Part shown: piece after piece, positions 10,193-63,054 of the stretch | Position numbering within the stretch: position 1 is the first letter of the stretch | How the letters are laid out: every line of letters starts with the position of its first letter | Origin: Acidimicrobiia bacterium | GTDB taxonomy: Bacteria; Actinomycetota; Acidimicrobiia; Spongiisociales; ZC4RG35 | DNA: 64,000 nt | Assembly: GCA_028285585.1 (NCBI GenBank) | Contig: JANQOU010000002.1 | Coordinates: 203,263 to 267,262 of the forward strand | Direction of reading: 5' to 3' | Program-made: the position numbers and the translations under genes | The notes under the pieces: generated by a model | The model's database searches: none | What the model was told of the DNA's origin: nothing | What the model saw: the letters and a program-made list of their open reading frames with translations, nothing else

Positions 10193-10712
10193 GATCAGGA
10201 AGACGCCCGTTCTCGATCACCTTTTGTCTCCGCTCTTTGCTGCTCAACCCAAGAGCAAACCAGAGCCAAACGAGATACGACAGCCCGGCAAGCTCCTTCA
10301 CCCATCTCCAAGGATCAGAAAACGCACGCTCCCAGGCGAGAGACCAGTACTGGGCCTCGCCGACAGGAATGTCCAAGCCGAAGAAGGGCCACAGGAACAC
10401 CTCTTGGCTGACCCACATCCCGTCGAGCAGCAGGTGGAAGAGCCAGCCGACGCCAACCGCCATCCACGCTCTCCTTCTCCTCCCCCGCCTAGTGGCGAGC
10501 AACACGACTGTCATATAGATGGTGGGTGCCAGAAGCGAGTGCATCCACAACTCACCCGTCGAGAATCGATCAACAAGGGCCAGAGTGCCGATAGGGAGAT
10601 CGATCAGGTCGGGCAGCACCGCACCAGCGAGTAAGAACCTGACGTCGACCTTTGGGTCACGAAAGATCCAACGGAAGAGCCAGAGCGTGGCACCAAGATG
10701 CCAGAACAGCAT
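10173..10712 (-). CDS. Integral membrane protein, possibly a DUF457/YdjM-like membrane-bound metal-dependent hydrolase
   Basis: 4-5 TM helices with His/Asp residues in the loops. Weak resemblance only. Confidence 0.4.
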   Translation of the reverse strand: MLFWHLGATLWLFRWIFRDPKVDVRFLLAGAVLPDLIDLPIGTLALVDRFSTGELWMHSLLAPTIYMTVVLLATRRGRRRRAWMAVGVGWLFHLLLDGMWVSQEVFLWPFFGLDIPVGEAQYWSLAWERAFSDPWRWVKELAGLSYLVWLWFALGLSSKERRQKVIENGRLPDHVAPSV

Positions 10713-10715
10713 TGG

Positions 10716-11423
10716 TCAGGCGACAAGGAGACGCCGACAGTGGACACACCTCGGCATCTCTTGGCTGAACGCCTCGTCCCGCTCGGCGGGCGACAGGGTC
10801 ATGTGACAACCGCCACAAACTCCGTGATCGAAGCTCGCCACGGCCACACCTTCTTTGATCCGTCGCAGCTTCTCGTACAACTCGAGGAGCTCGGCTCCAA
10901 CGGGGGACATGGCCTCTTGCTTGCGTTCCTCTTTGCGCGCCAACTCGGCGTCGATCTTCTTCCATTGCGCTTTGATCGATGACTCCAACTCGGCCTTGGC
11001 TTCGTTAAGGGAGGAGATGCGGGTTTCAAGGTCTTTCACCGCTTCGCGAGCCGGGTCGATGCCTTCGAGCATCTGGAGCACCTTCTCTTCCATCGTCTCT
11101 CGCTGCCCTTTGAGGCTCTGCACTTCGAGACGCATGTGCTCGGTCTCCCGGGCACTCATCCCGCCGGCGAACAACCGGGTCTCGTGCTCGTCGAGCTTCA
11201 CTTCGAGCAACTCCAGCTCACCCTCTGACTTGTCGAGACTCAGCTCCAAGTCTTTGAGCTTGGAAGCTTCGGTCTCGCGCTGCTCTTCGAGAGCCACAGC
11301 CTCCTCGTGAGCCTCCTTGTATTCGGCCAGCTCAGGCAGGTTCTGGCGCTCTTCGAGAAGACGATCGATCTGAAGATCGAGAGCCTGAACATCGAGCAGA
11401 TCGGCGAGACTCACCAGTTCCAT
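10716..11423 (-). CDS. C4-type zinc-ribbon coiled-coil protein (COG1579/DUF164)
   Basis: Long coiled coil with a C-terminal CGGCHMTLSPAERDEAFSQEMPRCVHC ribbon. The start is set at MELVSLADLLDVQALDLQ. Confidence 0.7.
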   Translation of the reverse strand: MELVSLADLLDVQALDLQIDRLLEERQNLPELAEYKEAHEEAVALEEQRETEASKLKDLELSLDKSEGELELLEVKLDEHETRLFAGGMSARETEHMRLEVQSLKGQRETMEEKVLQMLEGIDPAREAVKDLETRISSLNEAKAELESSIKAQWKKIDAELARKEERKQEAMSPVGAELLELYEKLRRIKEGVAVASFDHGVCGGCHMTLSPAERDEAFSQEMPRCVHCRRLLVA

Positions 11424-11448
11424 GAGTGGCGGGAGAGTAGTGGGGTGC

Positions 11449-12225
11449 TCAAGCCCAAGTTTCGGGGTCGATGTCGGTGAGATCGACAGCGACCACCTGA
11501 TCCGACTCGGAGACCATCTCGTACAGAGCCCCGATGCCAGGGCGTTCCGTGGCGATGTGGCCGGGATCGACAACGGCGAGACCGAGATCACGGGCCAGAA
11601 CCACACGATGATGGCCGACGTCGCCCGTCACCAACGCATCGGCTCGCTCCGCGGCGGCCTCGATGAGTGAAGATCCCGATCCAGGCACCACGGCCAGACG
11701 CTCAACCGCCCGTTTGGGGTTACCGCTGACCCGCAGGCCGGACACTCCGAACGCATCGGTTGCCAACGCATCCACGGCGGCAAGCGTCCCCTCAAAGTCC
11801 CCAACCCGTCCGATCTCGGGCTCGTCAGGGTCGGCTCCGAAAGAGTCCACCTCACGGAGCTTGAACAACGCCGCCAGCTTGTCGGCCATACCACCGGGCG
11901 CCACGTCGAAGTCGGTGTGCGTGACCAGCAAGCCGACACCCATCTGGATCAGCTGAAAGGCCCGCGCTTGCGGCGACCGGCCGGAGAGGATCCGGTTGGT
12001 TTTGGCGAAGAGCAGCGGGTGGTAGGTGACCAGCAGGTCGACTCCGTTTGCCTCCAGCTCGGAAATCACCTCCTCGGTGACCTCGTGGCAAACGGCCACG
12101 GTCTCAACCTCGGCGGACGGGTCACCGAGTTGAAGACCGACCGGGTCCCAGTCGGCCGCCTTCTCGGGGTTCGTACGGGAGGCAAGCCAAGTTGCGAAGT
12201 CGGCAACGGTGGTCACGCGTCTCAT
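11449..12225 (-). CDS. Nif3-family dinuclear metal centre protein (YqfO/YbgI)
   Basis: LLVTYHPLLF, VVPGSGSS and GHIATERPG motifs. It is the conserved neighbour of the COG1579 gene. Confidence 0.8.
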   Translation of the reverse strand: MRRVTTVADFATWLASRTNPEKAADWDPVGLQLGDPSAEVETVAVCHEVTEEVISELEANGVDLLVTYHPLLFAKTNRILSGRSPQARAFQLIQMGVGLLVTHTDFDVAPGGMADKLAALFKLREVDSFGADPDEPEIGRVGDFEGTLAAVDALATDAFGVSGLRVSGNPKRAVERLAVVPGSGSSLIEAAAERADALVTGDVGHHRVVLARDLGLAVVDPGHIATERPGIGALYEMVSESDQVVAVDLTDIDPETWA

Positions 12226-49408: not shown

Positions 49409-49572
49409 GCTCCCCTGACGTTATTGCCCCACTGACCCGTTGACCAAGTGTCTCCGCCCGAGATCGGGCGAACGGCGAATGGACCTCAATCCGACAAAGT
49501 CACCCACCGAGACCACACGCGACGCCAGTGGTTGATAGGTTCGCATCGTCCATTCGCGAAGGAAAGGGACCT

Positions 49573-50073
49573 ATGCAAGTCTCGATGACCGTCAACGGGC
49601 GGGATGTATCGGCAGACGTAGAGCCCCGGACGCTTCTGGTCCACTTCATCAGGGAAGAGCTTCGCCTCACCGGCACCCACGTCGGGTGCGAGACCGGTTA
49701 CTGCGGAGCCTGCACCGTGCATGTCGATGGCAAGCCCATCAAGAGCTGCACGATGCTCGCCGTCCAGGCCGACGGCGCCACCGTCACCACCATCGAGGGC
49801 ATGGCCTCCAACGGTGAGCTTCACCCTGTGCAAGAAGGGTTCTGGGAGCGGCACGGGCTCCAGTGCGGATTCTGCACACCCGGCATGATCATGTCGGCAG
49901 CAGCGCTCCTCGAGGAGAACGAGAACCCCTCAGAAGACGAGATCCGCCACGGCATCGAGGGCAACCTCTGCCGCTGCACCGGCTATCACAACATCGTGCG
50001 CGCCGTCGAGTACGCCGGAGCGAAGATGCGTGGCGAAGAGCCGCCGGCTCCCGACTGGGAAGGTGGCGACTGA
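49573..50073 (+). CDS. coxS: (2Fe-2S)-binding small subunit of a molybdenum hydroxylase (CoxS/CutS-like)
   Basis: [11 protein letters not shown] and CGFCTPGM...CRCTGY cysteine clusters. Confidence 0.9.
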
Positions 50074-52454
50074 TGGCTATGACCACAAGTGCTCTGGGCG
50101 GGAGCGTCCGCAGACGTGAGGACCCCGCCCTGATCCAAGGCTCCGGGCTCTACACCGACGACTACACGCCTCACGGCACTTCGTACGTCGCCTTTGCCCG
50201 CAGTCCCCTGGCTCACGCCAAGATCAACTCGATCGACACCAGCGCGGCGCAGGCTGCCGACGGTGTGGTGGCCGTCTACACCCATGACGATGTCGCACAT
50301 CTCGGCGATCTCCTGGCACAGGTGGTTGTCGCCAAAGGCCGGCCGCTGCTGGCGAACGGCGAGGTCAACCATGTCGGAGAAGCCGTGGCCATGGTTGTCG
50401 CCGAGAGCGTCGCGCAGGCAAAAGACGCGGCCGACATGATCGATGTCGACTACGACCCGCTTCCAGCGGTCATCGACCTGAAAGAAGCCCTGGCGAGTGA
50501 CAACCTCGTTCACGCCGACCTCGAGTCGAACGTGATCGTCCCCTGGGAAGCCGGTCCCTTCGGCGACGAGGAAGCAATTGCTGCCACGAAGCAGACGATC
50601 GCCGACGCCAAGGCCAGAGACGACACGGTCACGGTCTCAGTGGAGGCGGTGAACCAGAAGTTGATTCCGGTGCCGATCGAGCCACGATCGGTCGTCGCTG
50701 AGTGGAACGGCGGCTACGGCAGGTTCCGTGTCCACTCCAGCAGCCAGGTGCCTCATGCCCTGATGGGTGCGATCAAGACCACATTCGGGCTCAACGCCAA
50801 CGACGTGCACGTCACCGCACCAGAAGTCGGAGGCGGGTTCGGAGTGAAGCTCAACGTCTACAACGACGAGATCCTCTGCTGCTTCGCAGCCCAACAGTTG
50901 GGAAGGCCCGTCAAGTGGACCGAGACCAGACGCGAAGCGCCTGGATCCTCCATCCAGGGACGGGGATGGGTGGGCACAGCCACCGTCACCGGGACCAAAG
51001 ACGGTGAGATCCTCGGCTACGAGCTGGACGCCATTGCCGACATGGGTGCCTACGAGCAGAACTTCACTGCGGCGATCCCCTTCCTCGGGTTGTTCGTCGG
51101 CTCGGGCCAGTACAAGTTCCCTACGCATTGGAAGGCGACATGTGTGTTCACGAACACCATGACCACCGACGCCTACCGGGGAGCCGGTCGGCCGGAGGCC
51201 GCCTACTACCTGGAACGAGTCATTGACGCATACGCCCGGGAGATCGAAGTTGACCCGGTCCAAGTTCGGCTGAAGAACTTCTTCGAGCCGTTCGACGAGG
51301 CGGTGGTCTCCCCTATCGGGTTCGCCATCGACACCGGTGACTACGGCAACAACCTCGAGAAGCTCGTCGAGGTCTCCGGTTACGAGGACCTCAAGGCAGA
51401 GCGGGATGCGGCAAGGGCTGAGGGCCGTCACGTCGGCATCGGCATCACCACCTACTGCGAGGTTTGTGGGTTCGCCCCGACAGCTCTCTCCGAGCTTGGG
51501 TTCTCGTGGGCCACGTACGGCCTGCCGGCCGGGTTCTACGGGACCAGCCTGGTCCGGATCAACCCGGATGCATCGGTCACGGTGATCACCGGCACCGGCC
51601 CCAGCGGCCAGGGGCACCAGACCACTTGGGCTCAGCTGGTATCGGACCGATTGGGAATCCCCACCGAGCGGATTCGCGTCATCCATGGCGACACCGAAGA
51701 GTCGCCCATGGGCATCGGCACCTTCGGCAGCCGCTCACTGGCAGTCGATGGCTCCGCCACGTACGACGCGGCGGAGCGGGTAGCCGCGAAGGCAAAGAAC
51801 ATCGCGGCACACCTTCTCGAAGCTTCGGCCGACGACATCGAGCTGGATGCCGACGGAGCATCGGTAGCCGGATCGCCGGACAGCAGCGTCGACTGGGGCG
51901 AGATCGCCTCAGCCGCCTACCTGCCGTACCGGCTGGGCGAGACCGAGATCGAAGGCGGCCTGGAGTCGCATGTCATCTTCGACGCACCCAACGCCACCTG
52001 GCCCTTCGGCGCTCACCTGGCGATGGTCGAGGTCGACGGTGAGACCGGCGACGTCAAGATCCTGAAGTACATGACGGTGGATGACTGCGGAAACGTCGTC
52101 AACCCGATGATCGTGGCCGGACAGGTCCACGGCGGTGTCACCCAAGGGATCGGCCAGGCCTTGTTCGAAGAGTCGATCTACGACGAGAGCGGCAACCTGC
52201 TCACAGGGTCTCTGCTCGACTACCCGATCCCGGCTGCGGCCGACCTGCCGATGTTCGAGACCAGCCACACGGTCACACCTACGAACATCAACTCGATCGG
52301 TGCCAAGGGCATCGGTGAGGCGGGAACGATCGGATCGGCGCAGACCATCGTCAACGCGGTGGTCGACGCCCTCGAGTCGCTCGGCGTGAAGCACATCGAC
52401 ATGCCGCTGAGGCCAAAACGGGTTTGGGCCGCGATGCAGGAAGCGAGGGGTTGA
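50073..52454 (+). CDS. coxL: Molybdopterin-binding large subunit, form-II CoxL-like (xanthine dehydrogenase family)
   Basis: The active-site loop reads AYRGAGR (form II), not AYXCSFR (form I). The ATG overlaps the coxS stop (TGATG). The gene order is S-L-M. Confidence 0.9.
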   Translation: MAMTTSALGGSVRRREDPALIQGSGLYTDDYTPHGTSYVAFARSPLAHAKINSIDTSAAQAADGVVAVYTHDDVAHLGDLLAQVVVAKGRPLLANGEVNHVGEAVAMVVAESVAQAKDAADMIDVDYDPLPAVIDLKEALASDNLVHADLESNVIVPWEAGPFGDEEAIAATKQTIADAKARDDTVTVSVEAVNQKLIPVPIEPRSVVAEWNGGYGRFRVHSSSQVPHALMGAIKTTFGLNANDVHVTAPEVGGGFGVKLNVYNDEILCCFAAQQLGRPVKWTETRREAPGSSIQGRGWVGTATVTGTKDGEILGYELDAIADMGAYEQNFTAAIPFLGLFVGSGQYKFPTHWKATCVFTNTMTTDAYRGAGRPEAAYYLERVIDAYAREIEVDPVQVRLKNFFEPFDEAVVSPIGFAIDTGDYGNNLEKLVEVSGYEDLKAERDAARAEGRHVGIGITTYCEVCGFAPTALSELGFSWATYGLPAGFYGTSLVRINPDASVTVITGTGPSGQGHQTTWAQLVSDRLGIPTERIRVIHGDTEESPMGIGTFGSRSLAVDGSATYDAAERVAAKAKNIAAHLLEASADDIELDADGASVAGSPDSSVDWGEIASAAYLPYRLGETEIEGGLESHVIFDAPNATWPFGAHLAMVEVDGETGDVKILKYMTVDDCGNVVNPMIVAGQVHGGVTQGIGQALFEESIYDESGNLLTGSLLDYPIPAAADLPMFETSHTVTPTNINSIGAKGIGEAGTIGSAQTIVNAVVDALESLGVKHIDMPLRPKRVWAAMQEARG

Positions 52455-52455
52455 C

Positions 52456-53304
52456 ATGTACCCGAGGCAATTCGACTACGTAGCACCCGGCTCACTCGAC
52501 GAAGCATTCGGGGCGCTCGGCGACACCTCCAAGGTGATGGCGGGCGGCATGAGCCTCATCCCCCTGATGAAGATGCGACTCTTCTCGCCGGGAACGGTGG
52601 TGGACATCGGCCGCATCGGCGGGCTCGACACCATCGACGACCACGGAGACCACATCTCGATCGGGGCTCTTGTCCGGCACGCCGAGACGGCTTCCAGCGG
52701 CGCCGTCCCCACGGCTCTGGCCACAGCGGCCTCGCTCACGGGAGACGTGCAGGTCCGCAATCGGGGCACCACATGTGGTGCTCTGGCCCACGCCGACGTC
52801 GCTGCCGATCAGCCCGCAGGCGCTCTCGCCTGTGGAGCGGTCATGGTTGCCCAGTCGGCCAGCGGCACTCGTGAGATCCCGGCTTCGGAGTTCTTCGTGG
52901 ATGCGCTGACATCAGCGCTTCACCACGACGAGATACTGACGTCGGTCAAGATCCCCAAAGCGGGCGACGGAGAAGGCTCGGCTTACGACAAGCTGGGTCG
53001 TCGCGGCGGCCGCTCGGACTACGCCGTGGCCGGTGCAGCCGCTTGGGTGAAGAAGTCAAATGGCTCTATCGAGGCTGCCCGTGTCGCGCTGACCGGGGTA
53101 GGCACTAAGCCACAGCTCGCCGACGGGGTTGCTGAAGCTCTAGTGGGCACCGACGGCTCCGACGGGGCTGTCGAGGCAGCTGCCGACCGAGCACTCGAAG
53201 GGGTGACCGTCCTCGAGGATCTGTATGGATCCGAGGAGTACAAGAGCCACCTGGCAAAGGTCTACGTCACCAGGGCTGTGAAGCAAGCGCTGGCGAACAT
53301 CTGA
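52456..53304 (+). CDS. coxM: FAD-binding medium subunit (CoxM/CutM-like)
   Basis: VMAGGMSLIPLMK and the FAD-binding PCMH fold motifs. Confidence 0.9.
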   Translation: MYPRQFDYVAPGSLDEAFGALGDTSKVMAGGMSLIPLMKMRLFSPGTVVDIGRIGGLDTIDDHGDHISIGALVRHAETASSGAVPTALATAASLTGDVQVRNRGTTCGALAHADVAADQPAGALACGAVMVAQSASGTREIPASEFFVDALTSALHHDEILTSVKIPKAGDGEGSAYDKLGRRGGRSDYAVAGAAAWVKKSNGSIEAARVALTGVGTKPQLADGVAEALVGTDGSDGAVEAAADRALEGVTVLEDLYGSEEYKSHLAKVYVTRAVKQALANI

Positions 53305-53369
53305 CCGACCAACGGACGACGGACGAGTAGCCCGCTCTCAGCGGGCTACTCACGTTTTAAGGTGCCCCA

Positions 53370-53636
53370 ATGACCAACCGGAGCTGCTCTCATTTCGAGA
53401 CGCTGGAGTCGGTTACCGACCCGACATCAACAGTCTGCGATCAATGTGTTGCCTCGGGTGACGTCTGGGCCCACTTGAGAGCTTGCCTGCTCTGCGGCAG
53501 CGTCGGCTGCTGCGACAACTCCAAGAACCGTCATGCCCGCCGCCACTGGGAAGACCACCGGCACCCTCTGATCCAGTCGATCGAGCCGGGTGAGACCTGG
53601 CGATACTGCTTCGAAGACCAGTACCTGGTGAAGTGA
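53370..53636 (+). CDS. UBP-type zinc-finger protein
   Basis: CSHF...C..C......W.CL.CG.VGCC......H...H is the zf-UBP pattern. The stop overlaps the next start (ATGA). Confidence 0.75.
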   Translation: MTNRSCSHFETLESVTDPTSTVCDQCVASGDVWAHLRACLLCGSVGCCDNSKNRHARRHWEDHRHPLIQSIEPGETWRYCFEDQYLVK

Positions 53637-55288
53637 GCGAGAAGAAACCGATCATCCTCGCCGTCGACGACGAGCCCGAGGTGCTGCGTGCCGTGCAGCG
53701 AGACCTCAGGTCGAACTACGCCGCCGACTACCGAATCGTCGCCGCGATCGGTGGGCAAGAGGCCATCGACACCCTCGACGAGCTGGCCCTCAAGGACGAG
53801 CCCGTGGCGCTGATCGTGGCGGACCAGCGCATGCCCGGGGTAACCGGCGTCGAAGTCCTCTCCCGGTCCTTGAGCTACTACCCGAACGCGAAGCGGACAC
53901 TGCTCACCGCCTATGCCGACACCGAAGCCGCCATCAGCGCCATCAACGACGTAGGGCTCGACCACTACATCATGAAGCCGTGGGACCCGCCCGATCAGAA
54001 GCTGTTTCCCATTCTTGACGACCTGCTCTCCGATTGGCAGGCCGGCTACCGGCCTACGTTCACGGGCCTCCGAATCATCAGCCAGGAGTGGTCCCGTGAG
54101 GCCTTCGAGTTGAAAGCGTTCCTGGCCATGAACCAGATCCCATACAAGTCGTTGACTCTCCGAAAGGATGCAGAGGCCGAAGTCCTGATGGAATCGGCAG
54201 GCGCCGCGATCTCGGACCTCCCTTTGGTCTTGCTCACCGATGACTCCCCGATCAAAAGCCCGTCGACCGACCAACTGGCGGGCGCCATCGGCCTCAAGAG
54301 CCACGCCTCCGAGCCTGCTTACGACCTGGCGATAGTCGGCGCCGGGCCGGCAGGCCTCGCTGCTGCGGTGTATGGAGCATCCGAGGGCCTGAGCACCATC
54401 CTCATCGAGGCTTCAGCTCCCGGCGGGCAGGCGGCGCAATCGACTCTCATCGAGAACTACCTCGGCTTTCCAAAGGGGATCAGTGGTGCAGACTTGGCAC
54501 GACGCGCCCACAGTCAGGCGACCCGCCTGGGTGCCGAAATCGTGGTGCCGGCGACTGTGCGCTCGGTGGAACGAAAAGATCCCTTTCGCATCCTGCACAT
54601 GGCTGACGGATCCACGATCACCGCCAAAGCACTGGTGATCTGCAGCGGTGTCGAGTATCGCAAGCTGGAAGCAGAGGGCCTGGACCGGCTGAAAGGAGCC
54701 GGGGTCTACTACGGCACCTCAAACATCGAAGCCACGTCACACCGCGACTCTCCCATGTACGTCGTCGGTGGCGGCAACTCGGCGGGACAGGCAGCTCTCT
54801 TCCTCAGTCGCTTCACCGACTCGGTCACCATCGTCATCCGTCGAAGCGACCTCTCCGAGACGATGTCGCAGTATCTCATCGACAACATCGCGGACAACCC
54901 CGCTTTGACCGTTCTTCCACGGCACGAAGTGGTGGAGGCGAGAGGAGACACCCACCTCGAGTCGATCAACCTCAAGAACCTGGACACGAATGAGGCGACC
55001 GACGCAACGGCGGGAGCGATGTTCATATTCGTCGGTCAAAGGGCTCACACGGACTGGCTGGGCGACCTGGTGGACCTGGATGATGGTGGGTTCGTTCTGG
55101 CCGGCAGTGATCTCGGCTCACTGGCCGGTTGGAACGTGGACCGGGACCCGCTGCCCCTGGAGACTTCGGTCCCTGGCGTGTTCGTGGCCGGCGATGTTCG
55201 TCACGGATCGATCCGCCGGGTGGCCGGAGCCACCGGCGAGGGTGCGACGGCGATTCGATTCGTTCATCAACATCTGGCTTCTCTGTGA
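53633..55288 (+). CDS. Fused response-regulator receiver plus thioredoxin-reductase-like flavoprotein that lacks the CxxC redox centre
   Basis: REC: ILAVDDEP...DQRMPGVTG. FAD/NAD(P) Rossmann motifs DLAIVGAGPAGLAAA and VVGGGNSAGQAALFL. The TrxR CATC position reads GTSN. Confidence 0.8.
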   Translation: MSEKKPIILAVDDEPEVLRAVQRDLRSNYAADYRIVAAIGGQEAIDTLDELALKDEPVALIVADQRMPGVTGVEVLSRSLSYYPNAKRTLLTAYADTEAAISAINDVGLDHYIMKPWDPPDQKLFPILDDLLSDWQAGYRPTFTGLRIISQEWSREAFELKAFLAMNQIPYKSLTLRKDAEAEVLMESAGAAISDLPLVLLTDDSPIKSPSTDQLAGAIGLKSHASEPAYDLAIVGAGPAGLAAAVYGASEGLSTILIEASAPGGQAAQSTLIENYLGFPKGISGADLARRAHSQATRLGAEIVVPATVRSVERKDPFRILHMADGSTITAKALVICSGVEYRKLEAEGLDRLKGAGVYYGTSNIEATSHRDSPMYVVGGGNSAGQAALFLSRFTDSVTIVIRRSDLSETMSQYLIDNIADNPALTVLPRHEVVEARGDTHLESINLKNLDTNEATDATAGAMFIFVGQRAHTDWLGDLVDLDDGGFVLAGSDLGSLAGWNVDRDPLPLETSVPGVFVAGDVRHGSIRRVAGATGEGATAIRFVHQHLASL

Positions 55289-56631
55289 CTTCAGTCGAGA
55301 GCCTGCGAAACCTCCCCTACTTCGAGGATCTCCCTGACGAGCTTCTGAAGCGGGTGGCAGAGGTCTCGGAGATGCTCGAGCTCGAAGCCGATCGCGTCAT
55401 CATCGAGGAGGGCAGTGAGAGCGAAGAGATGTATGTCGTCGTCGAAGGCGAGCTGGTTGTCACCAAGCGAACCGGCGACAAAGAGGTCACTCTCGCCGTC
55501 TTGAGCCCGGGTGAAGTTGTCGGTGAGATCGCCTTGCTGGACGAAGCACCCCGCACCGCGACCGTGACGACAACCGTGCCCTCGACGGTGCTTCGGGTCC
55601 CTGCGGCAGCCTTCGGCGAGCTCTTGTCAGATGCCCAAGTGGTGCGACGCATGTTTCGGACTGTCACTTCCCGTTTGCGAGGCATCGAGAACACCCTGCG
55701 TCATGAGGAGCGAATGTCGGCGTTGGGAAAGATGGCGGCCCAGTTGATGCACGAGCTGAACAACCCGGCGGCTGCGGTGGGTCGAAGCAGCGGCGAGCTG
55801 GAAAGGGTCTACGACCTGCTCTCCGAAGAGGCAGCAGTGCTGGCCCAGTCGGTGGGTGGCGGCGTCGAAGTCGAAGCACCTGAACCACCCGAACTGAGCC
55901 CTCTCGAGATGAGTGAGCTAGAGAACACCATGGCGGATTATCTCGAGGATGCTGCAGTTCCTGACCCTTGGGATCTGGCACCGGGACTCGTCGCCGCTGG
56001 TTGGCAACCCGAGATTCTTCAATCGAGCCTTTCAGGCACGGAAGAAGAGCTGAGACCACACCTGCTTCGCTGGATCGGGCTCCGGGCCACCGCGGGCCAG
56101 CTGATCAACGAGATATCAATGGCGGCAGGGCGGGTCTCGGAGCTGGTCAGAGTGATCAAGGAGTACTCCTACCTGGATCAGGCGCCGGTTCAGGAGGTCA
56201 GCATCGCCGACGGAATCAGAGACACGCTCACCTTGCTGAAACACAAGTTGAAGCATGTGTCGGTGACAACCAGCTTCCCTGACGACCTGAACCGAGTCGA
56301 GGTCCCTGGCCGGGACTTGAACCAGGTGTGGACCAATCTGATCGACAACGCCGCTGACGCACTAAGCGACGGTGACACCCTGACCATCACCGCTCGCAAT
56401 GAGGGCGATGGAGTCGTCGTGGAGGTCGCCGACTCTGGATCCGGGATCCCCGACGACATCATCGACCGGGTGTTTGATCCTTTCTTCACCACGAAGGAGC
56501 CTGGGAAGGGAACAGGTCTCGGCCTTCACACCGTGCACACGATCGTGAGCCGCATGGGCGGCGACATTCGAGTCTCCAGTTCGTCTTCAGGCACCATCTT
56601 CACAGTGCAGGTGCCTGCTCGGGCCGGCTAA
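55285..56631 (+). CDS. Cyclic-nucleotide-binding-domain sensor histidine kinase
   Basis: cNMP domain ([18 protein letters not shown]...[11 protein letters not shown]), H-box [12 protein letters not shown], HATPase DSGSGIPDD...GKGTGLGL. The GTG start overlaps the upstream stop. Confidence 0.8.
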
Positions 56632-57641
56632 GGCCTCCTGAACGCCGAGGCGGCCTTGGCCACCAACACGTCACAAGGCGCCTGAGAGACCAGGCCTTCG
56701 GCCACCGTGCCCAGCAAGACCATCCTCGTGGCCGTCGCCCCCCGATTGGCCACAACCACGAGGTCGGCGTTGCGACGTCTCACTACCTCATCGATCGCCT
56801 CGGTGGGCGGGCCGTCAGCGATCATCGTCCTCACGGTGCCGTTCCATTGCTGCGAGAACTCCGCCATCCGGTCACCCGCTGCCTCGAGCCGGGTTCCTCT
56901 GGACGCATCCACTTCCTCCTGGAACAACCCCGCCTCGGACATGACAGGGTCGAAACGGGATGGCAGGGAGTAGAGCGCGGTCAGATCGGCTTCTGGGAAC
57001 ATCTCCAACGACCTGTCGACAGCTGTTCTTGATGCCTCCGAGAAGTCGACCGCAGCAACAACCCGCCGATAGGGGACACGGGGCTGCCGCCTGACGATGA
57101 GCGTGTCTGTGTTGGACATGGTCGCTACTCGCCGTGCGACAGGACCGGCGGTGAACGCATCGAGTGTCGAGGATCCAACCACAACCAAGTCTGCCGTCTT
57201 AGCCCGTGACGCCAACTCCCAGGAGGGTGTTCCTTTCGGAACTTCGAGCGACACCGACGCCGATGACCGCTCGGCACACCAAGAGGCCAGCTTCTCTGCC
57301 TCCGCTTTCTGATGCTCTCTCATCAGCGAAGCGAGGCCAGGATCGATCATCGCCTCTGACATCGGCTCGAGAACATGGACCAGCGTGAGAGAAGCGTCCA
57401 GGGCCTCAGCGACGAGGCGGGCGCGGTCGGCCACGCGACGTCCCATGGCGGTCAGGTCAACGCCAGCTACAACTGCCCGCAATGCGCCGGTCCCAGAAGC
57501 ACGCGGCGACTCTAACCCCGTAGGTGCGGTCAGTGCCCCGGGAAGGGACTGGGAAGATCGATGTGATCCTCGAGCAGCTCCAGGTAGCGGTCCCGGCCCA
57601 CAGTCACGGAGCCCAGGGACTCGAGATGTGGCGTCTTCCAC
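56628..57641 (-). CDS. Tandem universal stress protein (2x UspA domain)
   Basis: Two Usp folds (AVVAGVDLT... and VVAAVDFSEAS...VVVANRG). The listed start overlaps the aat 3' end by 112 nt, so the start is uncertain. Confidence 0.7.
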   Translation of the reverse strand: MEDATSRVPGLRDCGPGPLPGAARGSHRSSQSLPGALTAPTGLESPRASGTGALRAVVAGVDLTAMGRRVADRARLVAEALDASLTLVHVLEPMSEAMIDPGLASLMREHQKAEAEKLASWCAERSSASVSLEVPKGTPSWELASRAKTADLVVVGSSTLDAFTAGPVARRVATMSNTDTLIVRRQPRVPYRRVVAAVDFSEASRTAVDRSLEMFPEADLTALYSLPSRFDPVMSEAGLFQEEVDASRGTRLEAAGDRMAEFSQQWNGTVRTMIADGPPTEAIDEVVRRRNADLVVVANRGATATRMVLLGTVAEGLVSQAPCDVLVAKAASAFRRP

Positions 57642-58189
57642 TGGACGTCCACCAGCCCGCCGTCACCCGAGCTCATGATCACCATCAGATGGAAGAGGGC
57701 TACCTTCGAGGCGTCGCGAGCCCGATGGAACATCGACTCACCTGCGAAGAGCCCACCGATGTTGACTCCGTACAGACCTCCCACCAACACCCCTTCGGAG
57801 TCCCACACTTCGATCGAGTGCGCCCAGCCCAGCTCGTGGAGTCCTGTGTAGGTCTCGATGAACTCGTCAGTGATCCATGTCCCGTCTCGCTCGGGCACTG
57901 CGCAGCTGACGATCACATCGCCAAACGCCTCGTCGACGGTCACCTGGAAACGACGAACCGACTGTCGCAGAGAACGGCTCACGTTCAAGCCGCCGAGAGG
58001 CAGGATGGCCCGCTCGACTGGCGACCACCAGCCGAGGTGCCCGTCTTCGAGTCCCATGGGGAACATCCCTTTTCTATAAGCCTGAAGGACAAGCCCAGGT
58101 GAGAGGTCTCCCCCCACAGCCACAACGTCACCTTCCGCCAGACGAGGGTCGGGCAGATCGAATATGGACGGGATCGGCTCCACCGGCAC
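57530..58189 (-). CDS. aat: Leucyl/phenylalanyl-tRNA--protein transferase
   Basis: GGLYGVNIGGLFAGESMF and WWSPVERAILPL are L/F-transferase signatures. Confidence 0.9.
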   Translation of the reverse strand: MPVEPIPSIFDLPDPRLAEGDVVAVGGDLSPGLVLQAYRKGMFPMGLEDGHLGWWSPVERAILPLGGLNVSRSLRQSVRRFQVTVDEAFGDVIVSCAVPERDGTWITDEFIETYTGLHELGWAHSIEVWDSEGVLVGGLYGVNIGGLFAGESMFHRARDASKVALFHLMVIMSSGDGGLVDVQWKTPHLESLGSVTVGRDRYLELLEDHIDLPSPFPGH

Positions 58190-59213: not shown

Positions 59214-60325
59214 CCGACATCGTCGTGATCGGCGGAGGCATCGCCGGTGTTGCCGCGGCAGCTCATCTGGCACCACACGGCTCGGTGACGCTCTTGGAGG
59301 CGGAGCCGGCGCTTGCTTATCACACCACCGGAAGATCGGCAGCACTCTTCGTGCTCAACTACGGGGAACAGGGTTTTCGTCCCCTCACGAAGGCGAGCGA
59401 GAGCTTTCTTCTCAACCCTCCGGAAGACGCGACCGGAGCTCCCCTGCTCAGCGAGAGAGGGCTGCTTTGGCTGGGCAGACCCGACCAGATGGGGAATCTG
59501 GAGAAGCTCGCTTTGGAAGGCTCCGAGTCGGGGGCCAACTCCCGGATCGTGGACCTCGACGAGGTGCTCCAGATGATCCCGGTGGTGCGTCCCGACGTGG
59601 TTGCCGGCGGCTTGCTGGAGCCGTCAGCTCAGGACATAGACGTAGCCGGGCTGCATCAGGTGTTCGTGAAGATGACCACGGCGGCCGGAGGCAAGCTCCT
59701 CACCAACCAGCAGGTGACCGGGTTGAAGCGATCCGACTCGGGATGGCAGGTGAGGACTGTCGAGCAAGAGCTCCATTGCGACGTCATCGTGAATGCCGCA
59801 GGTGCCTGGGGAGACGTCGTTGCCGGGCTCGCCGGGATCCCACCAGTGGGCCTGACACCGAAGCGGCGAACGGCGTTCATGGTCCCCGGCTCCGAAGACT
59901 TCGTCCGCTGGCCGATGGCGGTCGACGCCGACCAGAAGTTCTACTTCAAGGCAGACGGAGTCCAACTCCTCTGTTCCCTGGCCGAGCAACGCCCATCCCC
60001 TCCCGAGGACTCCCGCCCACAGATGGAGGACGTTGCCCTCGCCATCGAGAGGATCAACGAGGCGACGACCTTGGGAATCAGGACGGTCAACTCACAGTGG
60101 ACCGGCTTACGGACTTTTGCCCCTGACGGCAATCTGGTCGCCGGTGAGGAGCCTGAGGCCCCAGGGTTCTTCTGGCTGGTCGGCCAGGGCGGCACCGGAA
60201 TTCAGGCGGCGCCGGGCTACGGGGCGCTTCTGGCAAGTCTCGTACTGGGCGGGGACCTTCCCGACGAGTTGGCCGGCGCGGGCGTGGATCCTGCCGTCAC
60301 CGATCCTTCCCGTTTCAGGTCCTAG
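59210..60325 (+). CDS. FAD-dependent oxidoreductase (DAO family, glycine/D-amino-acid-oxidase-like)
   Basis: A GTG start overlaps the qor stop (GTGA). [18 protein letters not shown] dinucleotide motif. Confidence 0.75.
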
Positions 60326-61989
60326 CCGGTTACGGCACCGTCCTTCGCCGAGCCGACGAGACGTGCGTATTTGGCCAGGGCACCAGACTCGTAGCGAGCC
60401 GGCTGTGGCGACCAGACCTCGCGTCTGGCGGCAAGCTCATCGTCGTCAACGAGCACATCGAGTGTTCTGGCCGGGATGTCGACCCGAACCGTGTCGCCGG
60501 TCTTCACCAGGCCGATGGCCCCGCCAACCTCCGACTCCGGCGCCACGTGGCCGATGCACATACCGGTGGTGCCTCCGGAAAAGCGGCCATCAGTGATCAG
60601 GAGCACATCCTTGCCCAGGCCGGCTCCCTTGATTGCCGCCGTGATCGCGAGCATCTCACGCATGCCTGGGCCGCCCTTGGGCCCTTCAGTGCGAATCAGC
60701 ACGACATCGCCTTTCTTGATCTTGTGGTCAAAGAGGGCTGCCAAAGCGTCCTGTTCCCCCTCGAAGACAACCGCCGGGCCCTCGAAGACCTCGAGGTCGA
60801 TGCCGGCCACCTTGACCACGGCTCCTTCCTCGGCGATGTTGCCGTGGAGAATGGCAATGCCCCCTTCTCGCGCCAGCGGCTGGTCGACGGGGAGGATGAC
60901 GTCCTGATCACCCGGGAACTCCACCGCATCGAGATTCTCCGCCATCGTCTTTCCGGTGATCGTGAGAACGTCGCCTTCTAACAGCCCTTCAGCAAGAAGA
61001 GCTTTCAAGACCACAGGCACGCCGCCGATGTGATCGACATCGACCATGTGATAGCGGCCGAACGGCTTCAGATCACCGATGTGCGGGGTGCGCCGTGAGA
61101 TCCGGTCGAAGTCGCCCAGATTGAGGTCAACACCTGCCTCATTGGCAATCGCCATCAGATGAAGCACGGCGTTGGTGGAGCCGCCAAGCGCCATCACCGT
61201 CGTGATGGCGTTCTCGAACGCCGGCCTGGTCATGACCTGCCGCGGCGTGATCCGGCTCTCCAGAAGACCCATCACAGCCTCACCCGACGCTTTCGCATAC
61301 TGGCGAAGACGCGGGTCCACAGCAGGGACCGCGGCGGAACCTGGCAGCGAAAGGCCAATGGCCTCGCCGACCGAAGCCATCGTGTTGGCAGTGAACATCC
61401 CAGCGCAACTCCCCGCCCCAGGACAGGCCGAGCGCTCGATCTCGGTCAGCTCATCGGTCGTGATGCGGCCGTCGGATTCGGCACCTATACCTTCGAACAC
61501 ATCCACGATCGAGATGTCCTTGCCGCGGTAGCGGCCGGGCAGGCTCGAGCCTCCGTAGAGGAAGATCGCCGGCAGGTCGAGACGCGCTGCCGCCATCATC
61601 ATCCCGGGGAGCGACTTGTCACAGCCGGCGATCGAGACCATGGCATCGAATCTCTCCGCATGCATGACCAGCTCGACCGAGTCGGCGATCACCTCCCGGG
61701 ATACCAAACTGGCTCTCATCCCTTCGTGACCCATCGAAATGCCGTCGCTCACGGCGATGGTGGAGAAAATCAACCCCACTCCCCCGGCATCGGCGACACC
61801 GTGCTTGGCGTGCTCCGACAACTCGGGCCCGGTGACGTTGCAGGGTGTCACCTCGTTGCCGGCTGAAACCACGCCGACCTGGGGTTTTGAGAAGTCCTCA
61901 TCTGTGAGCCCAACGGCTCGCAGCATGGCTCTGGCTCCGGCCTTAGCCGGTCCTTCAGTTACGTCCTGTGACCTGGTCTTCAACGACAT
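60322..61989 (-). CDS. ilvD: Dihydroxy-acid dehydratase
   Basis: [11 protein letters not shown] (the [2Fe-2S] Cys), [11 protein letters not shown], and the C-terminal GGPIAL-like region. The listed 805-aa ORF has a spurious N-extension antisense to ilvC. Confidence 0.95.
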
Positions 61990-62049
61990 AGTCAGCGAAT
62001 GGTACGCCCAGGTTTGGACACTGGCGCAAAACCGACGCACAATTCCGGG

Positions 62050-63054
62050 ATGGCGACCATCTACTACGACAGCGATTGCGACCTTGACCTGATCAAAGGC
62101 AAGCGTGTTGCAGTCATCGGATACGGCAGTCAGGGTCACGCTCACTCCCTGAATCTCAAGGAGTCGGGCGTCGATGTCGTGGTAGGCCTCAGGGAAGGAT
62201 CGTCGAGCCGGGATGCCGCCGTGGCGGAGGGGTTGAAGGTCCTCTCGCCTTCGGAAGCGGCTGCCTGGGCAGACGTGGTGATGATGCTGGTGCCCGACCA
62301 GATCATGGGCACGATCTACCGCGAGTCCGTCGAGCCCAACCTCGAAGCCGGCGACACGCTGCTGTTCGCCCACGGCTTCAACATCCACTTCGGTGAGATC
62401 ACACCGCCTGGCGACGTGGACGTCGCCATGGTCGCCCCGAAAGGACCGGGCCACCTCGTGCGCCGCACCTACACCGAGGGCTCTGGCGTCCCCTGCCTCA
62501 TCGCCGTGCATCAGGATCCGTCTGGCGCGGCTCACAATGTCGGCCTTTCCTACGCATCCGCTATCGGTGGCGGGCGAGCCGGGATTCTCGAGACCACCTT
62601 CAAAGAGGAGACCGAGACCGACCTCTTCGGTGAGCAGGTCATCCTCTGCGGTGGTGTTTCCGAGCTGATCAAGGCCTCGTTCGAGACCCTCGTCGAAGCC
62701 GGCTACCAGCCAGAGTCCGCCTACTTCGAGACGCTCCACGAACTGAAGCTCATCGTGGACCTTCTCTACGAAGGAGGGCTGTCCTGGATGCGCTACTCGG
62801 TGTCCGACACCGCCGAGTACGGCGACTACACCAGAGGGAACCGGATCGTCACCGACGAAGCCCGGGAAGAGATGCGCAAGATCTTGGGCGAGATCCAGTC
62901 AGGGGCCTTTGCCAACGAGTGGATGGCGCAGGCGCGAGAAGGTGCCCCCTTCCTCTTGGAGCAGAGAGACGCCAACCGTTCCCATCAGGTGGAGCAGGTC
63001 GGTGCCGAGTTGCGCAAGCTGATGCCGTTCATGGAGCCGAAGACCGCTCCCTGA
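62050..63054 (+). CDS. ilvC: Ketol-acid reductoisomerase
   Basis: [21 protein letters not shown] is the class I KARI signature. Confidence 0.95.

Follow-up and report, generated by a model that had tools for sequence, protein, structure and literature searches.

A zf-UBP protein, a receiver-linked flavoprotein and a histidine kinase in one Acidimicrobiia operon: a predicted soluble relay to a thioredoxin reductase-like module without redox cysteines

Gene organization and flanking genes

The window (the whole stretch of 64,000 nucleotides that was analysed, from an Acidimicrobiia bacterium) carries three genes on the same strand at 53370-56631. They encode a zf-UBP protein, a regulator in which a receiver domain (REC) is joined to a flavoprotein module, and a histidine kinase with a cNMP-binding domain. 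The features are as follows.

53325..53358, + strand: GC-rich hairpin of 12 bp, then UUUU, between the coxM stop and the zf-UBP start
53370-53636, + strand: zf-UBP gene, 88 aa, ATG start, from the ORF list
53633-55288, + strand: REC flavoprotein gene, 551 aa, GTG start
53654..53992, + strand: receiver domain, residues 8-120 (Pfam Response_reg, 1.3e-13)
54044..54310, + strand: glutaredoxin (Grx)-like thioredoxin-fold domain, residues 138-226 (profile and fold search)
54317..55285, + strand: thioredoxin reductase (TrxR)-like two-Rossmann flavoprotein domain, residues 229-551
54713..54730, + strand: G361-T-S-N-I-E366, which replaces the TrxR C-x-x-C-D (alignments)
55285-56631, + strand: histidine kinase gene, 448 aa from the GTG start
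55378..55629, + strand: cNMP-binding (CAP-type) sensor domain (Pfam cNMP_binding, 7.6e-22)
55522-55566, + strand: phosphate-binding cassette of 15 residues, read from the sequence and compared with orthologues
55750..55767, + strand: H-box HELNNP, aligned on the ZraS H-box
56311..56622, + strand: HATPase_c catalytic domain (Pfam, 3.6e-26, 92.2 bits)

The initial annotation described overlapping stop and start codons between the three genes. Both overlaps are present and the second was correctly read as GTGA, whereas the first, given as ATGA, also reads GTGA. Such 4-nt start/stop overlaps are the commonest operon junction, and hence those seen here are real but unremarkable on their own. The kinase read from the GTG at 55285 matches a protein in the collection exactly, and is therefore an independently called gene. 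As annotated, the zf-UBP gene leads the operon (Pfam zf-UBP, PF02148: 49.5 bits against a cut-off of 22.7, E = 5.1e-13). No transmembrane-like segment was seen in any of the three proteins (top Kyte-Doolittle 19-residue score ≤ 1.47), and Pfam found no DNA-binding or other effector domain in them.

The flanks also agree with the annotation. On one side lies a form-II coxS-L-M cluster, with the AYRGAGR motif in CoxL; on the other lies a convergent tandem USP gene, with two Usp stretches in Pfam, whose 3' end overlaps that of the kinase by 4 nt. The USP neighbour is restricted to the closest relatives: called USP genes were found in loci L001, L085 and L086, and among the 79 loci surveyed only L002, which is 66% identical, has this neighbour. 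As their conservation stops at the closest relatives, cox, USP, Leu/Phe-tRNA transferase and quinone oxidoreductase genes were rejected as members of the unit. The TIR/McrBC genes next to L087 have no relation to the unit, and a defence-system reading was rejected as well.

The hairpin at 53325..53358 was spotted by eye and folded afterwards. Its folding energy is -28.2 kcal/mol (z = -3.4), and none of 200 shuffles folded as well. Only 11 nt separate the U-tract from the zf-UBP ATG, and 18 nt the stem from the ATG. The hairpin is probably a terminator or attenuator of the cox operon. A strict consensus scan of 52900-57800 found neither promoter nor terminator.

The kinase and its receiver

The kinase has no cysteine, and Pfam recognizes its cNMP_binding and HATPase_c domains. 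In line with the initial annotation, the sensor is a cNMP-binding domain (77.5 bits against a cut-off of 27.5) and not a membrane sensor; its matches in the PDB are the cNMP domains of PKG and PKA (6e-19 to 1e-12). The two hallmarks of a histidine kinase, an H-box histidine and a GHKL ATPase domain, are both present. The protein aligns with ZraS (9JFJ) at E = 1.3e-24, with an insert of ~85–100 residues after the H-box helix, and the Pfam HisKA model stays below threshold (E = 0.05). His156, in an HE[LIM]NNP motif found in 65 of 70 orthologous kinases, is the predicted autophosphorylation site.

The phosphate-binding cassette of the window kinase is canonical, including its Glu and Arg (G-E-x-A-L-x(4,5)-R-[ST]-A), and from this motif alone its ligand is predicted to be a cyclic nucleotide. 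However, only 8/70 of the orthologous kinases have the canonical Glu/Arg cassette, which suggests that the family-wide signal is probably not a cyclic nucleotide; 35/70 have 'LP[FY]SR'.

The regulator consists of a receiver, a Cys-free glutaredoxin/mycoredoxin-like domain and a CxxC-less TrxR-like FAD/NAD(P)H domain, in this order, and its AlphaFold model has a pLDDT of 95.3 and a pTM of 0.91. The receiver scores 51.5 bits with Response_reg (cut-off 30.2) and has the full D12-D13-D64-T92-K115 set, in which Asp64 is the predicted phospho-acceptor. The DD-D-T-K set recurs in 78/79 orthologous regulators; the 79th has D-T-K, while its first two positions fall in an alignment gap.

Loss of redox cysteines from a proposed glutaredoxin–thioredoxin reductase fusion

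The initial annotation described the output as a full FAD/NAD(P) TrxR-like flavoprotein, and this is supported. Pyr_redox_2 matches residues 230-537 (E = 2.1e-32), and the FAD motifs (GAGPAG, GGQ, GD) and the NAD(P)H motif (GGGNSAGQ with R403-R404) are intact. These motifs are invariant across 109 family members at 33–51% identity (G236/G238/G241, G265-Q266, G379/N382, D521). The AlphaFold model adopts the flavin-reducing (FR) TrxR conformation, and superposes on TrxRs in that conformation with a TM of 0.95 and an rmsd of 1.6–2.3 Å.

The two-Rossmann fold is shared with TrxB (TIGR01292; 4GCM, 2A87, 5MH4) at ~30–32% identity (Foldseek), as are GGQ, GGGNSA, GD and, where TrxB has its catalytic Asp, an acidic residue (E366). 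In contrast to TrxB, the window domain has one extra residue in the CxxC helix, a ~20-residue insertion before 'LETS' and the family-specific motifs 'MSxYL' and 'WLP', and it is preceded by REC and Grx-like domains. The redox-active CATC had been reported to read GTSN. The loss of the disulfide is confirmed, but the exact correspondence was one column off: HMMER places 'GVYYGTSNIEA' opposite 'GVSYCA-VCDG' of solved TrxRs, with a one-residue insertion, so that the redox cysteines align to G361 and I365, and the acid Asp to E366. The lone cysteine noted near this site, C337, is the only one in the regulator, and the family consensus there is Ala. Hence, no intramolecular disulfide is possible.

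A shifted CxxC, named with the initial annotation as a refuting outcome, does not explain these observations. CxxC is absent from all 79 genomic orthologues and from 150 cluster representatives, in which the site is mostly G-A-A-x, and no conserved Cys column exists anywhere in the family, of which 7/109 members lack cysteine altogether. The annotation's view that the protein cannot be a classical thioredoxin reductase therefore holds. As a thioredoxin-disulfide reductase (TIGR01292/EC 1.8.1.9) it has the folds and motifs but not the CxxC, and its score of 226.2 bits is below the cut-off of 343.45; membership of the classical TrxRs and of AhpF was likewise rejected.

The upstream Grx-like domain shows the same loss. 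No Pfam model matches this stretch (138-226), yet the family profile finds Mrx1 in the PDB (2LQO, E = 4.8e-10) with 'WSrrS' opposite 'WCGYC', and Foldseek ranks Mrx1, BC3987 and cGrx1 highest (TM 0.59–0.84; domain pLDDT 91.5). In common with mycoredoxin-1/NrdH-like glutaredoxins (2LQO, 3ZIT), the domain has a thioredoxin fold and the conserved cis-Pro, here P197, which is kept in 103/109 members. Their active site is W-C-G-Y-C, whereas the window domain reads W-S-R-E-A (S154-R-E-A157), with neither CxxC nor CxxS, and no thiol chemistry is possible; in the family this column is S/D/A, and Cys in 3/109. The position of the domain, upstream of a TrxR-type domain, resembles that in Grx–TrxR or Trx–TrxR fusions (TGR, AhpF, NTRC). 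Loss of both CxxC motifs holds across more than 100 clusters at 50% identity. Without any redox cysteine, thioredoxin cannot be reduced by dithiol exchange.

TrxR-type ferredoxin-NADP+ reductases (3LZW, 6GAS, 2ZBW) offer the nearest mechanistic analogy, as they have a CxxC-less TrxR fold that passes NAD(P)H electrons to a non-thiol acceptor. The window domain is not a member of this group: phmmer against the PDB gives E = 1.7e-45 for TrxRs versus ~1e-18 for these reductases (2.6e-18 to 3e-17). Unlike the window protein, they have a flavin-covering C-terminal extension, and no sensor or Grx-like domains. With 3LZW, the last aligned residues are 308 of 332 in that chain, with ~24 left, and 542 of 551 in the window protein, with 9 left.

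Family distribution and gene pairing

The flavoprotein family is large: at E ≤ 1e-30 it matches 3002 clusters of a 50%-identity library, and no fewer than 592 relatives were confirmed in genomes. Its members come from bacteria of many phyla that live in soil, in water or with plants. In public databases these proteins bear the name 'thioredoxin reductase', e.g. 'thioredoxin reductase (NADPH)'.

In 70/79 genomes, the regulator gene has an orthologous kinase gene beside it in the same orientation (kinase core, phmmer E = 1e-43 to 1e-105). These pairs span at least eight phyla (Actinomycetota, Chloroflexota, Bacteroidota, Acidobacteriota, Gemmatimonadota, Cyanobacteria, Pseudomonadota and Planctomycetota) and occur in two different gene orders; where the kinase is downstream, 33/46 junctions measure between -4 and +50 nt. 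Co-conservation, the lack of which would have refuted the initial annotation, extends to the zf-UBP gene, which adjoins the flavoprotein gene in close relatives among the Acidimicrobiia, including those with other flanks, and in 15/79 distant genomes. Clustering of all flanking ORFs gave no recurrent neighbour besides the kinase, zf-UBP and egtB/egtD. An SDR was present in 8 loci, apparently by chance.

Local phmmer assignment of sensor domains in the 150 cluster representatives of the Grx-like + TrxR-like module found REC in 107, cNMP in at least 25 and both in one. In this cNMP-fused type, with the RefSeq name 'thioredoxin-disulfide reductase', the module is 40–46% identical to residues 140-550 of the window protein. 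The Ralstonia and Cupriavidus members also lack CxxC. Genes of this type often have a zf-UBP gene just upstream. In contrast to the window system, the sensor is joined directly and needs neither kinase nor receiver; a kinase is adjacent in 0/80 loci of this type. Fusion of a cNMP domain to the flavoprotein module (a 'Rosetta stone') supports the link between kinase and flavoprotein.

The architecture itself is already catalogued: the window regulator belongs to the 'REC + thioredoxin reductase' response regulators, a 'Mycobacterium-like combination' (Galperin; PMC5847659). The catalogue entry gives the architecture alone, and we found no partner kinase, cysteine loss, Grx-like domain or zf-UBP partner described there (PMC5847659). 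Our literature search found no functional description of the REC-TrxR type or of its pairing with a kinase. For the cNMP-fused type, ATII-TrxR is probably a member, judged from its closest relative in C. metallidurans, in which the family motif MSRYLID is present and CxxC is missing. Badiea et al. (2019; PMC6544261) report 1.87 FAD per purified native enzyme, and oxidation of NADPH and NADH at several turnovers per second in the DTNB assay. They describe a high-Mr TrxR with thioredoxin-dependent insulin reduction, and we found no mention of the missing CxxC in the main text of their paper (PMC6544261). Such insulin reduction is unexpected of a CxxC-less enzyme, and hence either the assay or the assignment of ATII-TrxR to the family may be imperfect.

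The zf-UBP protein

The window zf-UBP protein has lost none of the 12 Cys/His that are conserved in its bacterial family (H8, C23, C26, H35, C39, C42, C47, C48, H55, H59, H65, C80), each of which is retained in at least 45 of 48 sequences, with 10 of the 12 invariant. It matches the bacterial zf-UBP structure 2IDA (E = 7.5e-21), which has the same fold and metal-ligand pattern and was deposited as a 'hypothetical protein'. Eukaryotic ZnF-UBP domains (USP5, HDAC6, USP49) are alike in these respects, but their C-G-R-Y is C-C-D-N-S in the window protein; in the alignment to USP49 and HDAC6, C-D-N-S stands opposite G-R-Y. This CC-D-x-S motif is invariant in the 48 bacterial sequences. The C-G-R-Y stretch, with Arg-Tyr after the third Cys pair, is what we take to be the pocket for the ubiquitin C-terminus (Gly-Gly), and its replacement makes binding of a Gly-Gly tail doubtful.

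A word-indexed search with the 88-aa protein gave 219 matches, close relatives only. Besides the 15/79 REC-type loci, the gene is adjacent in 20/64 loci of the cNMP-fused type. Since it accompanies both types, it partners the flavoprotein module and not the phosphorelay. No zf-UBP gene was found in the 4–5 kb flanks of ~70–80% of the loci outside the close clade, and thus it may be dispensable.

A candidate signal-gated flavoenzyme

The operon is best read as a complete soluble two-component relay, of which the output is an enzyme rather than a transcription factor. The module, in turn, is best seen as a working flavoprotein and not a relic, given its invariant cofactor motifs, its FR-like model and the ATII-TrxR data. 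At a probability of about 0.5, we propose a soluble relay that runs from cNMP via His156 to Asp64 and thereby gates an NAD(P)H oxidoreductase of a non-thiol kind, which acts together with zf-UBP. In this relay, cAMP or cGMP would bind the N-terminal CAP-type domain of the kinase and alter autophosphorylation at His156, from which the phosphoryl group would move to Asp64. The phosphorylated receiver may then make the attached module more or less active, most likely via dimer geometry or domain docking. The module itself would descend from a glutaredoxin–TrxR fusion, deprived of its redox cysteines yet still binding FAD and NAD(P)H. Hydride would pass from NAD(P)H to the flavin, and electrons from there to a putative non-thiol acceptor. 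The co-translated zf-UBP protein may be the partner of the flavoprotein, either as acceptor or carrier or as regulatory subunit. The soluble cNMP-to-flavoprotein circuit of the initial annotation is supported overall, with the qualification that a canonical cNMP site is found in only 8/70 orthologous kinases.

Few response regulators have an enzyme as their output, and hardly any of these acts on redox cofactors. Defining the electron acceptor would correct a widespread mis-annotation as 'thioredoxin reductase', give bacterial zf-UBP proteins a first function, and show how a second messenger (or the ligand of a variant CAP domain) couples to NAD(P)H-dependent electron flow. As the system is soluble, small and cysteine-poor, it should be easy to reconstitute.

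More tentatively, the family might be an undescribed, phylum-spanning class of signal-gated redox enzymes, in which a thiol-free Grx–TrxR 'fossil' acts with zf-UBP in oxidative or thiol stress. The enzyme would then be switched on directly by the ligand of a CAP domain, or via a dedicated kinase–receiver pair. A stress role is suggested by the repeated co-location of zf-UBP and flavoprotein genes with the ergothioneine synthesis genes egtB/egtD (8 loci), with a Trx2-like trxA and with clpB.

An alternative explanation might be that the flavoprotein is an input: it would report NAD(P)H/NAD(P)+ or the flavin redox state and, together with REC phosphorylation, steer a protein–protein interaction, e.g. 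with zf-UBP or the kinase itself, without a dedicated substrate. The lack of an effector domain in the three proteins and of a conserved substrate-related neighbour among the flanking ORFs fits this idea, as do the Grx-like domain and ex-CxxC helix, which are conserved without catalytic residues, like interaction surfaces. Yet, the cofactor motifs are as strictly conserved as in true enzymes, ATII-TrxR, a probable relative, is reported to oxidize several NAD(P)H per second with an artificial acceptor, and in the fused cNMP form the flavoprotein occupies the usual output position. We therefore consider an input role unlikely.

Possibly, zf-UBP supplies the missing redox centre, as a rubredoxin-like iron site or through the vicinal C47-C48 dithiol of a split reductase that would supply thioredoxin or a different thiol system. 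Such a role would refine the gated-oxidoreductase reading and is not a true alternative to it. It would suit the invariant CC-D-x-S in place of C-G-R-Y, the presence of zf-UBP beside both sensor types, the gene order clpB - trxA (Trx2-like) - zf-UBP - flavoprotein in Rhodococcus and Streptomyces plasmids, and the trxA upstream of zf-UBP/flavoprotein in at least five metagenome loci. However, the 12 Cys/His would fit three structural zinc sites, as in eukaryotic zf-UBP domains, and at most loci of the family zf-UBP is missing from the neighbourhood. A redox role for zf-UBP thus seems quite doubtful.

That the protein is a genuine thioredoxin reductase using non-canonical cysteines, as proposed for ATII-TrxR, would agree with the database names and the reported Trx/insulin activity, but is already contradicted by a sequence with one Cys, no conserved Cys column, Cys-free relatives (7/109) and only 226 of the 343 bits set by TIGR01292, and we regard it as highly improbable. 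It is equally hard to believe that the three genes are mere neighbours, with the kinase serving another regulator and the flavoprotein receiver an orphan or decoy: although 9/79 orthologue loci, three Streptomyces loci among them, lack an adjacent kinase, the pairing in the other 70 holds across gene orders and phyla, the junctions overlap, and the fused cNMP sister form backs the link.

Gene layout and flanks

The regulator and its two partner genes lie on the forward strand at 53370-56631, between the cox genes and a convergent gene for a tandem USP protein.

Features of the three-gene set and its upstream flank (window coordinates)
49528-53304, upstream of the set: coxS-coxL-coxM, form-II order, AYRGAGR motif in CoxL
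53325-53358 (hairpin 53325-53351), between coxM and the zf-UBP gene: hairpin plus UUUU, 12 bp, -28.2 kcal/mol, z = -3.4
53370-53636, +: zf-UBP gene, 88 aa; Pfam zf-UBP
53633-55288, +: regulator flavoprotein gene, 551 aa; Pfam Response_reg (residues 8-120) and Pyr_redox_2 (230-537)
55285-56631, +: kinase gene, 448 aa from GTG 55285; Pfam cNMP_binding (32-115) and HATPase_c (343-446)

Both junctions within the set are overlaps of 4 nt, as the initial annotation had stated, and the second is indeed GTGA. The first (53633), reported as ATGA, also reads GTGA in the DNA. A four-base overlap is the most ordinary operon junction. The overlaps support co-expression of the three genes and are not remarkable by themselves; junctions of 4 nt or 1 nt were seen again in orthologous loci. 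The longest open reading frame of the kinase starts with TTG at 55129, within the preceding gene, while the 448-aa product from GTG 55285 is the gene called in the public protein collection. In all three proteins the hydrophobic stretches are too short to form a membrane helix, and hence the circuit is soluble, as had been proposed. No DNA-binding domain was found anywhere in the three-gene set.

The flanks agree with their first description, both in the order and CoxL motif of the form-II coxSLM genes and in the convergent tandem USP gene downstream. As the longest coxL frame begins within coxS (49863), the actual start of coxL must be further downstream, probably near 50070. The hairpin on the coxM side ends 18 nt ahead of the zf-UBP ATG, and a consensus scan around it found no promoter upstream of the zf-UBP gene. 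Possibly, transcripts of the cox operon read through into the three genes, or a promoter that went unrecognised lies within coxM. At the other end, the kinase and USP genes overlap by 4 nt at their 3' ends (56628-56631), which leaves no space for a terminator between them. The USP neighbour occurs only in the closest relatives, with called USP genes in the related loci L001, L085 and L086, and in 1 of 79 surveyed loci (L002). Downstream of the USP gene lie genes for a Leu/Phe-tRNA protein transferase, a Zn-ADH-type oxidoreductase and a DAO-type flavoprotein. In a minus-strand frame of 805 aa (60322-63054), the match to dihydroxy-acid dehydratase does not begin until residue 285, and the true start therefore lies further in. 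The N-terminal extension of this frame overlaps the forward-strand ketol-acid reductoisomerase gene (61999-63054); this overlap is an ORF-calling artefact and not real.

A TrxR-like flavoprotein that lacks CxxC

The C-terminal 320 residues of the regulator are nearest to genuine low-Mr thioredoxin reductases (TrxRs), with a phmmer E of 1.7e-45 against S. aureus TrxR, whereas TrxR-type ferredoxin reductases match this part at only about 1e-18. The TIGR01292 score of the regulator, 226 bits, falls under the cut-off of 343 bits. The redox-active CATC of TrxR had been described as replaced by GTSN. The CxxC is gone, but the second cysteine position falls one residue past GTSN: HMMER aligns 'GVYYGTSNIEA' of the regulator opposite 'GVSYCA-VCDG' of TrxR. 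With a single residue inserted between them, G361 and I365 stand in for the cysteines, and E366 for the catalytic Asp. The sole Cys of the regulator, C337, occupies a family-consensus Ala position.

The loss of CxxC is not a local accident of the window protein. As the initial annotation supposed, the motif is truly lost and not shifted: CxxC is missing from this region in all 79 genomic orthologues. In 150 representatives of 50%-identity clusters, G-A-A-x is the usual reading at the position. In an alignment of 109 family members, Cys is conserved in no column, and 7 of the sequences lack Cys altogether; by contrast, the FAD and NAD(P)H motifs do not vary within the family. In an AlphaFold model built on the family alignment (pLDDT 95.3, pTM 0.91), the TrxR-like part closely matches flavin-reducing (FR) TrxR structures (TM 0.95, rmsd 1.6-2.3 Å) and fits the flavin-oxidising (FO) conformation poorly (TM about 0.65). 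The predicted FR-like conformation agrees with an enzyme that at rest is arranged in favour of hydride transfer from NAD(P)H.

Between the receiver and the TrxR-like part, residues 138-226 have no Pfam match. In the model they form a β-α-β-α-β-β-α unit, and a profile of 31 family segments matches M. tuberculosis mycoredoxin-1 (PDB 2LQO; E = 4.8e-10), with the family 'W-S-x-x-S/T/A' aligned to the mycoredoxin active site 'W-C-G-Y-C'. The top folds for a separate model of the domain (pLDDT 91.5) are Mrx1, NrdH-like BC3987 and small glutaredoxins. Of the 109 family members, 103 retain P197, the counterpart of the cis-Pro; the Cys positions of the Grx-like domain are lost. The regulator therefore consists of a REC domain, a pseudo-glutaredoxin and a CxxC-less TrxR, and has the appearance of a decayed Grx-TrxR fusion: both redox centres have gone, and the cofactor sites have been retained.

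Relation to ATII-TrxR and to catalogued architectures

The combination of REC and TrxR is listed as 'Mycobacterium-like' in Galperin's census (PMC5847659). Within the limits of our literature search, the partner kinase, the loss of both redox centres, the Grx-like domain and the zf-UBP partnership are undescribed. Hence, the regulator is an already catalogued architecture without a described function, and several of its features distinguish it from all TrxR-fold enzymes characterised so far. RefSeq names the two forms of the flavoprotein 'FAD-dependent oxidoreductase' and 'cyclic nucleotide-binding domain-containing thioredoxin-disulfide reductase', and JGI uses 'thioredoxin reductase (NADPH)'.

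The purified protein ATII-TrxR is probably a sister enzyme, because homologues from C. metallidurans and R. solanacearum fall clearly within the CxxC-less family. According to the available text of its description, ATII-TrxR is a 553-aa cNMP + TrxR-like protein, 87% identical to a C. metallidurans protein, with 1.87 FAD per native enzyme and Km values of 5.2 µM for NADPH and 4.2 µM for NADH, and it reduces DTNB (PMC6544261). The same text reports Trx-linked insulin reduction, invokes non-canonical cysteines and classes the protein as a high-Mr thioredoxin reductase; we found no mention in it of a missing CxxC (PMC6544261). The high-Mr class looks wrong, since the nearest named relative, L084, reads GRGVYYWASPVEAKLC at the CxxC position and has the family motif MSRYLID. 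This relative is located on the C. metallidurans CH34 megaplasmid (1557221-1558852), and the CH34 gene lacks an annotation in the plasmid table. The thioredoxin result cannot extend to the window protein, because that protein has one Cys.

Conservation and competence of the kinase-regulator pair

A scan of one genome per species gave at least 592 relatives, of which the best 80 loci were kept. These span Actinomycetota, Chloroflexota, Bacteroidota, Acidobacteriota, Gemmatimonadota, Cyanobacteria, Pseudomonadota and Planctomycetota, and the pair also occurs on a Deinococcus plasmid. In line with the proposed partnership, 70 of 79 loci have a core-orthologous kinase (E = 1e-43 to 1e-105) as same-strand neighbour of the regulator, downstream of it in 46 and upstream in 24. 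Of ten kinases missed by a single-sequence search, six have the cNMP-type domain by Pfam; one variant has REC-PAS-PAS in its place.

The Grx-like + TrxR-like module carries a REC domain in 107 of 150 representatives, a cNMP domain in at least 25 and both in 1. No adjacent kinase gene was found in 80 metagenomic loci of the cNMP-fused type. Such domain fusion independently supports the functional link within the set. In L087, the locus of a 77%-identical relative, the gene for a Guanylate_cyc + AAA_16 + TPR protein (L087:1-1821), a possible local source of cNMP, ends 3 kb upstream on the same strand; ThsB-TIR and McrBC defence genes lie downstream (8623-11656).

The receiver has the full D12-D13-D64-T92-K115 set. 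DD-D-T-K is present in 78 of 79 orthologous receivers, and the 79th has D-T-K, its aligned sequence being gapped at the first two positions. The H-box of the kinase, HELNNP (His156), aligns with that of ZraS and is kept in 65 of 70 orthologues, and the catalytic domain is normal. Between the H-box helix and the next part alignable to other kinases stands an insert of ~85-100 residues (about 166-262; window about 55780-56070). It has no database match, and appears conserved because the orthologues are of similar length.

The phosphate-binding cassette of the sensor (55522-55566) is canonical in the window's kinase, and its best structural relatives by sequence are the cNMP domains of PKG and PKA. 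A canonical-type cassette, Glu...Arg-[ST/N/M/A]-Ala, is found in 8 of 70 orthologous partner kinases; 35 share another motif at this site, 'G-x-L-P-[FY]-S-R', and 16 have the Glu without the Arg. On these counts, cyclic-nucleotide sensing is a fair prediction for the window's kinase. Most of the family probably responds to some other signal; for it, the alternative motif suggests a ligand other than cAMP/cGMP.

The zf-UBP protein

The zf-UBP gene had been presented as leader of the operon. In the window's own clade it does end at the regulator start, even with entirely different flanks (e.g., the cyclase-AAA-TPR protein, LtrA and TIR/McrBC genes of L087). Among distant REC-type loci, a search of 4-5 kb flanks placed it on the regulator's strand in 15 of 79, at variable positions. 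The corresponding count for cNMP-type loci with enough flank is 20 of 64, and the match lists of zf-UBP and regulator have 13 contig sizes in common. Intact zf-UBP genes, 70% identical, were left uncalled by the assemblies' gene finder at L085:4738-5001 and L086:4738-5001, and therefore small zf-UBP genes are probably under-counted in annotation-based surveys.

Annotated Rhodococcus and Streptomyces plasmids have the order cbpM - clpB - trxA (Trx2-like) - zf-UBP - flavoprotein, and an annotated Rhizobium plasmid has zf-UBP - flavoprotein. The presence of zf-UBP beside both REC-type and cNMP-type flavoproteins shows that the zinc-finger protein travels with the flavoprotein module, whichever sensor the module has. 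In the Rhodococcus and Streptomyces plasmid loci (L090:2834-5242, L091:2891-5371), the cNMP-fused flavoprotein stands in a heat-shock-type row, and the Trx2-like thioredoxin has an N-terminal double-CxxC zinc finger and a WCAPC/WCGPC site.

Within the zf-UBP family, 12 Cys/His are present in at least 45 of 48 sequences, 10 of them invariant, as is a C-C-D-x-S stretch. The solved structure of a close homologue, 2IDA (E = 7.5e-21), was deposited only as 'hypothetical protein'. In the alignment, bacterial C-C-D-N-S stands where eukaryotic ZnF-UBP domains read C-G-R-Y, a stretch which we take to be the pocket for a free Gly-Gly tail; binding of a ubiquitin-like tail by the bacterial protein is therefore doubtful. 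Several 88-aa zf-UBP protein matches (P0280, P0281, P0325, P0329, P0335, P0366, P0378) bear the JGI name 'CPA2 family monovalent cation:H+ antiporter-2', which looks like annotation transfer from a fusion protein.

Proposed mechanism and possible stress role

By sequence, the set comprises a competent kinase whose cNMP site is canonical, a receiver that is likewise competent, a thiol-free but cofactor-competent flavoprotein and a tightly linked zinc-finger partner. Ligand binding to the cNMP sensor may tune autophosphorylation at His156, and phosphorylation of Asp64 would then change flavoprotein activity. Electrons would pass from NAD(P)H via FAD to a non-thiol acceptor, with the zf-UBP protein as putative acceptor or carrier, or as a regulator.

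Ergothioneine gene neighbours, together with trxA/clpB in the actinobacterial plasmids, hint at a role in oxidative or thiol stress; they identify no substrate. The window itself has no egt genes. By domain assignment in neighbour genes, egtB combines DinB_2 and FGE-sulfatase domains and egtD is a Methyltransf_33 protein. Of 159 loci, 8, which represent at least two phyla, have one or both next to zf-UBP and the flavoprotein. Five of these loci, from two phyla, are of REC type (L005, L021, L037, L050, L062), with the egt genes directly upstream on the same strand, and L154, L164 and L172 are of cNMP type. All eight loci with egt neighbours contain zf-UBP.
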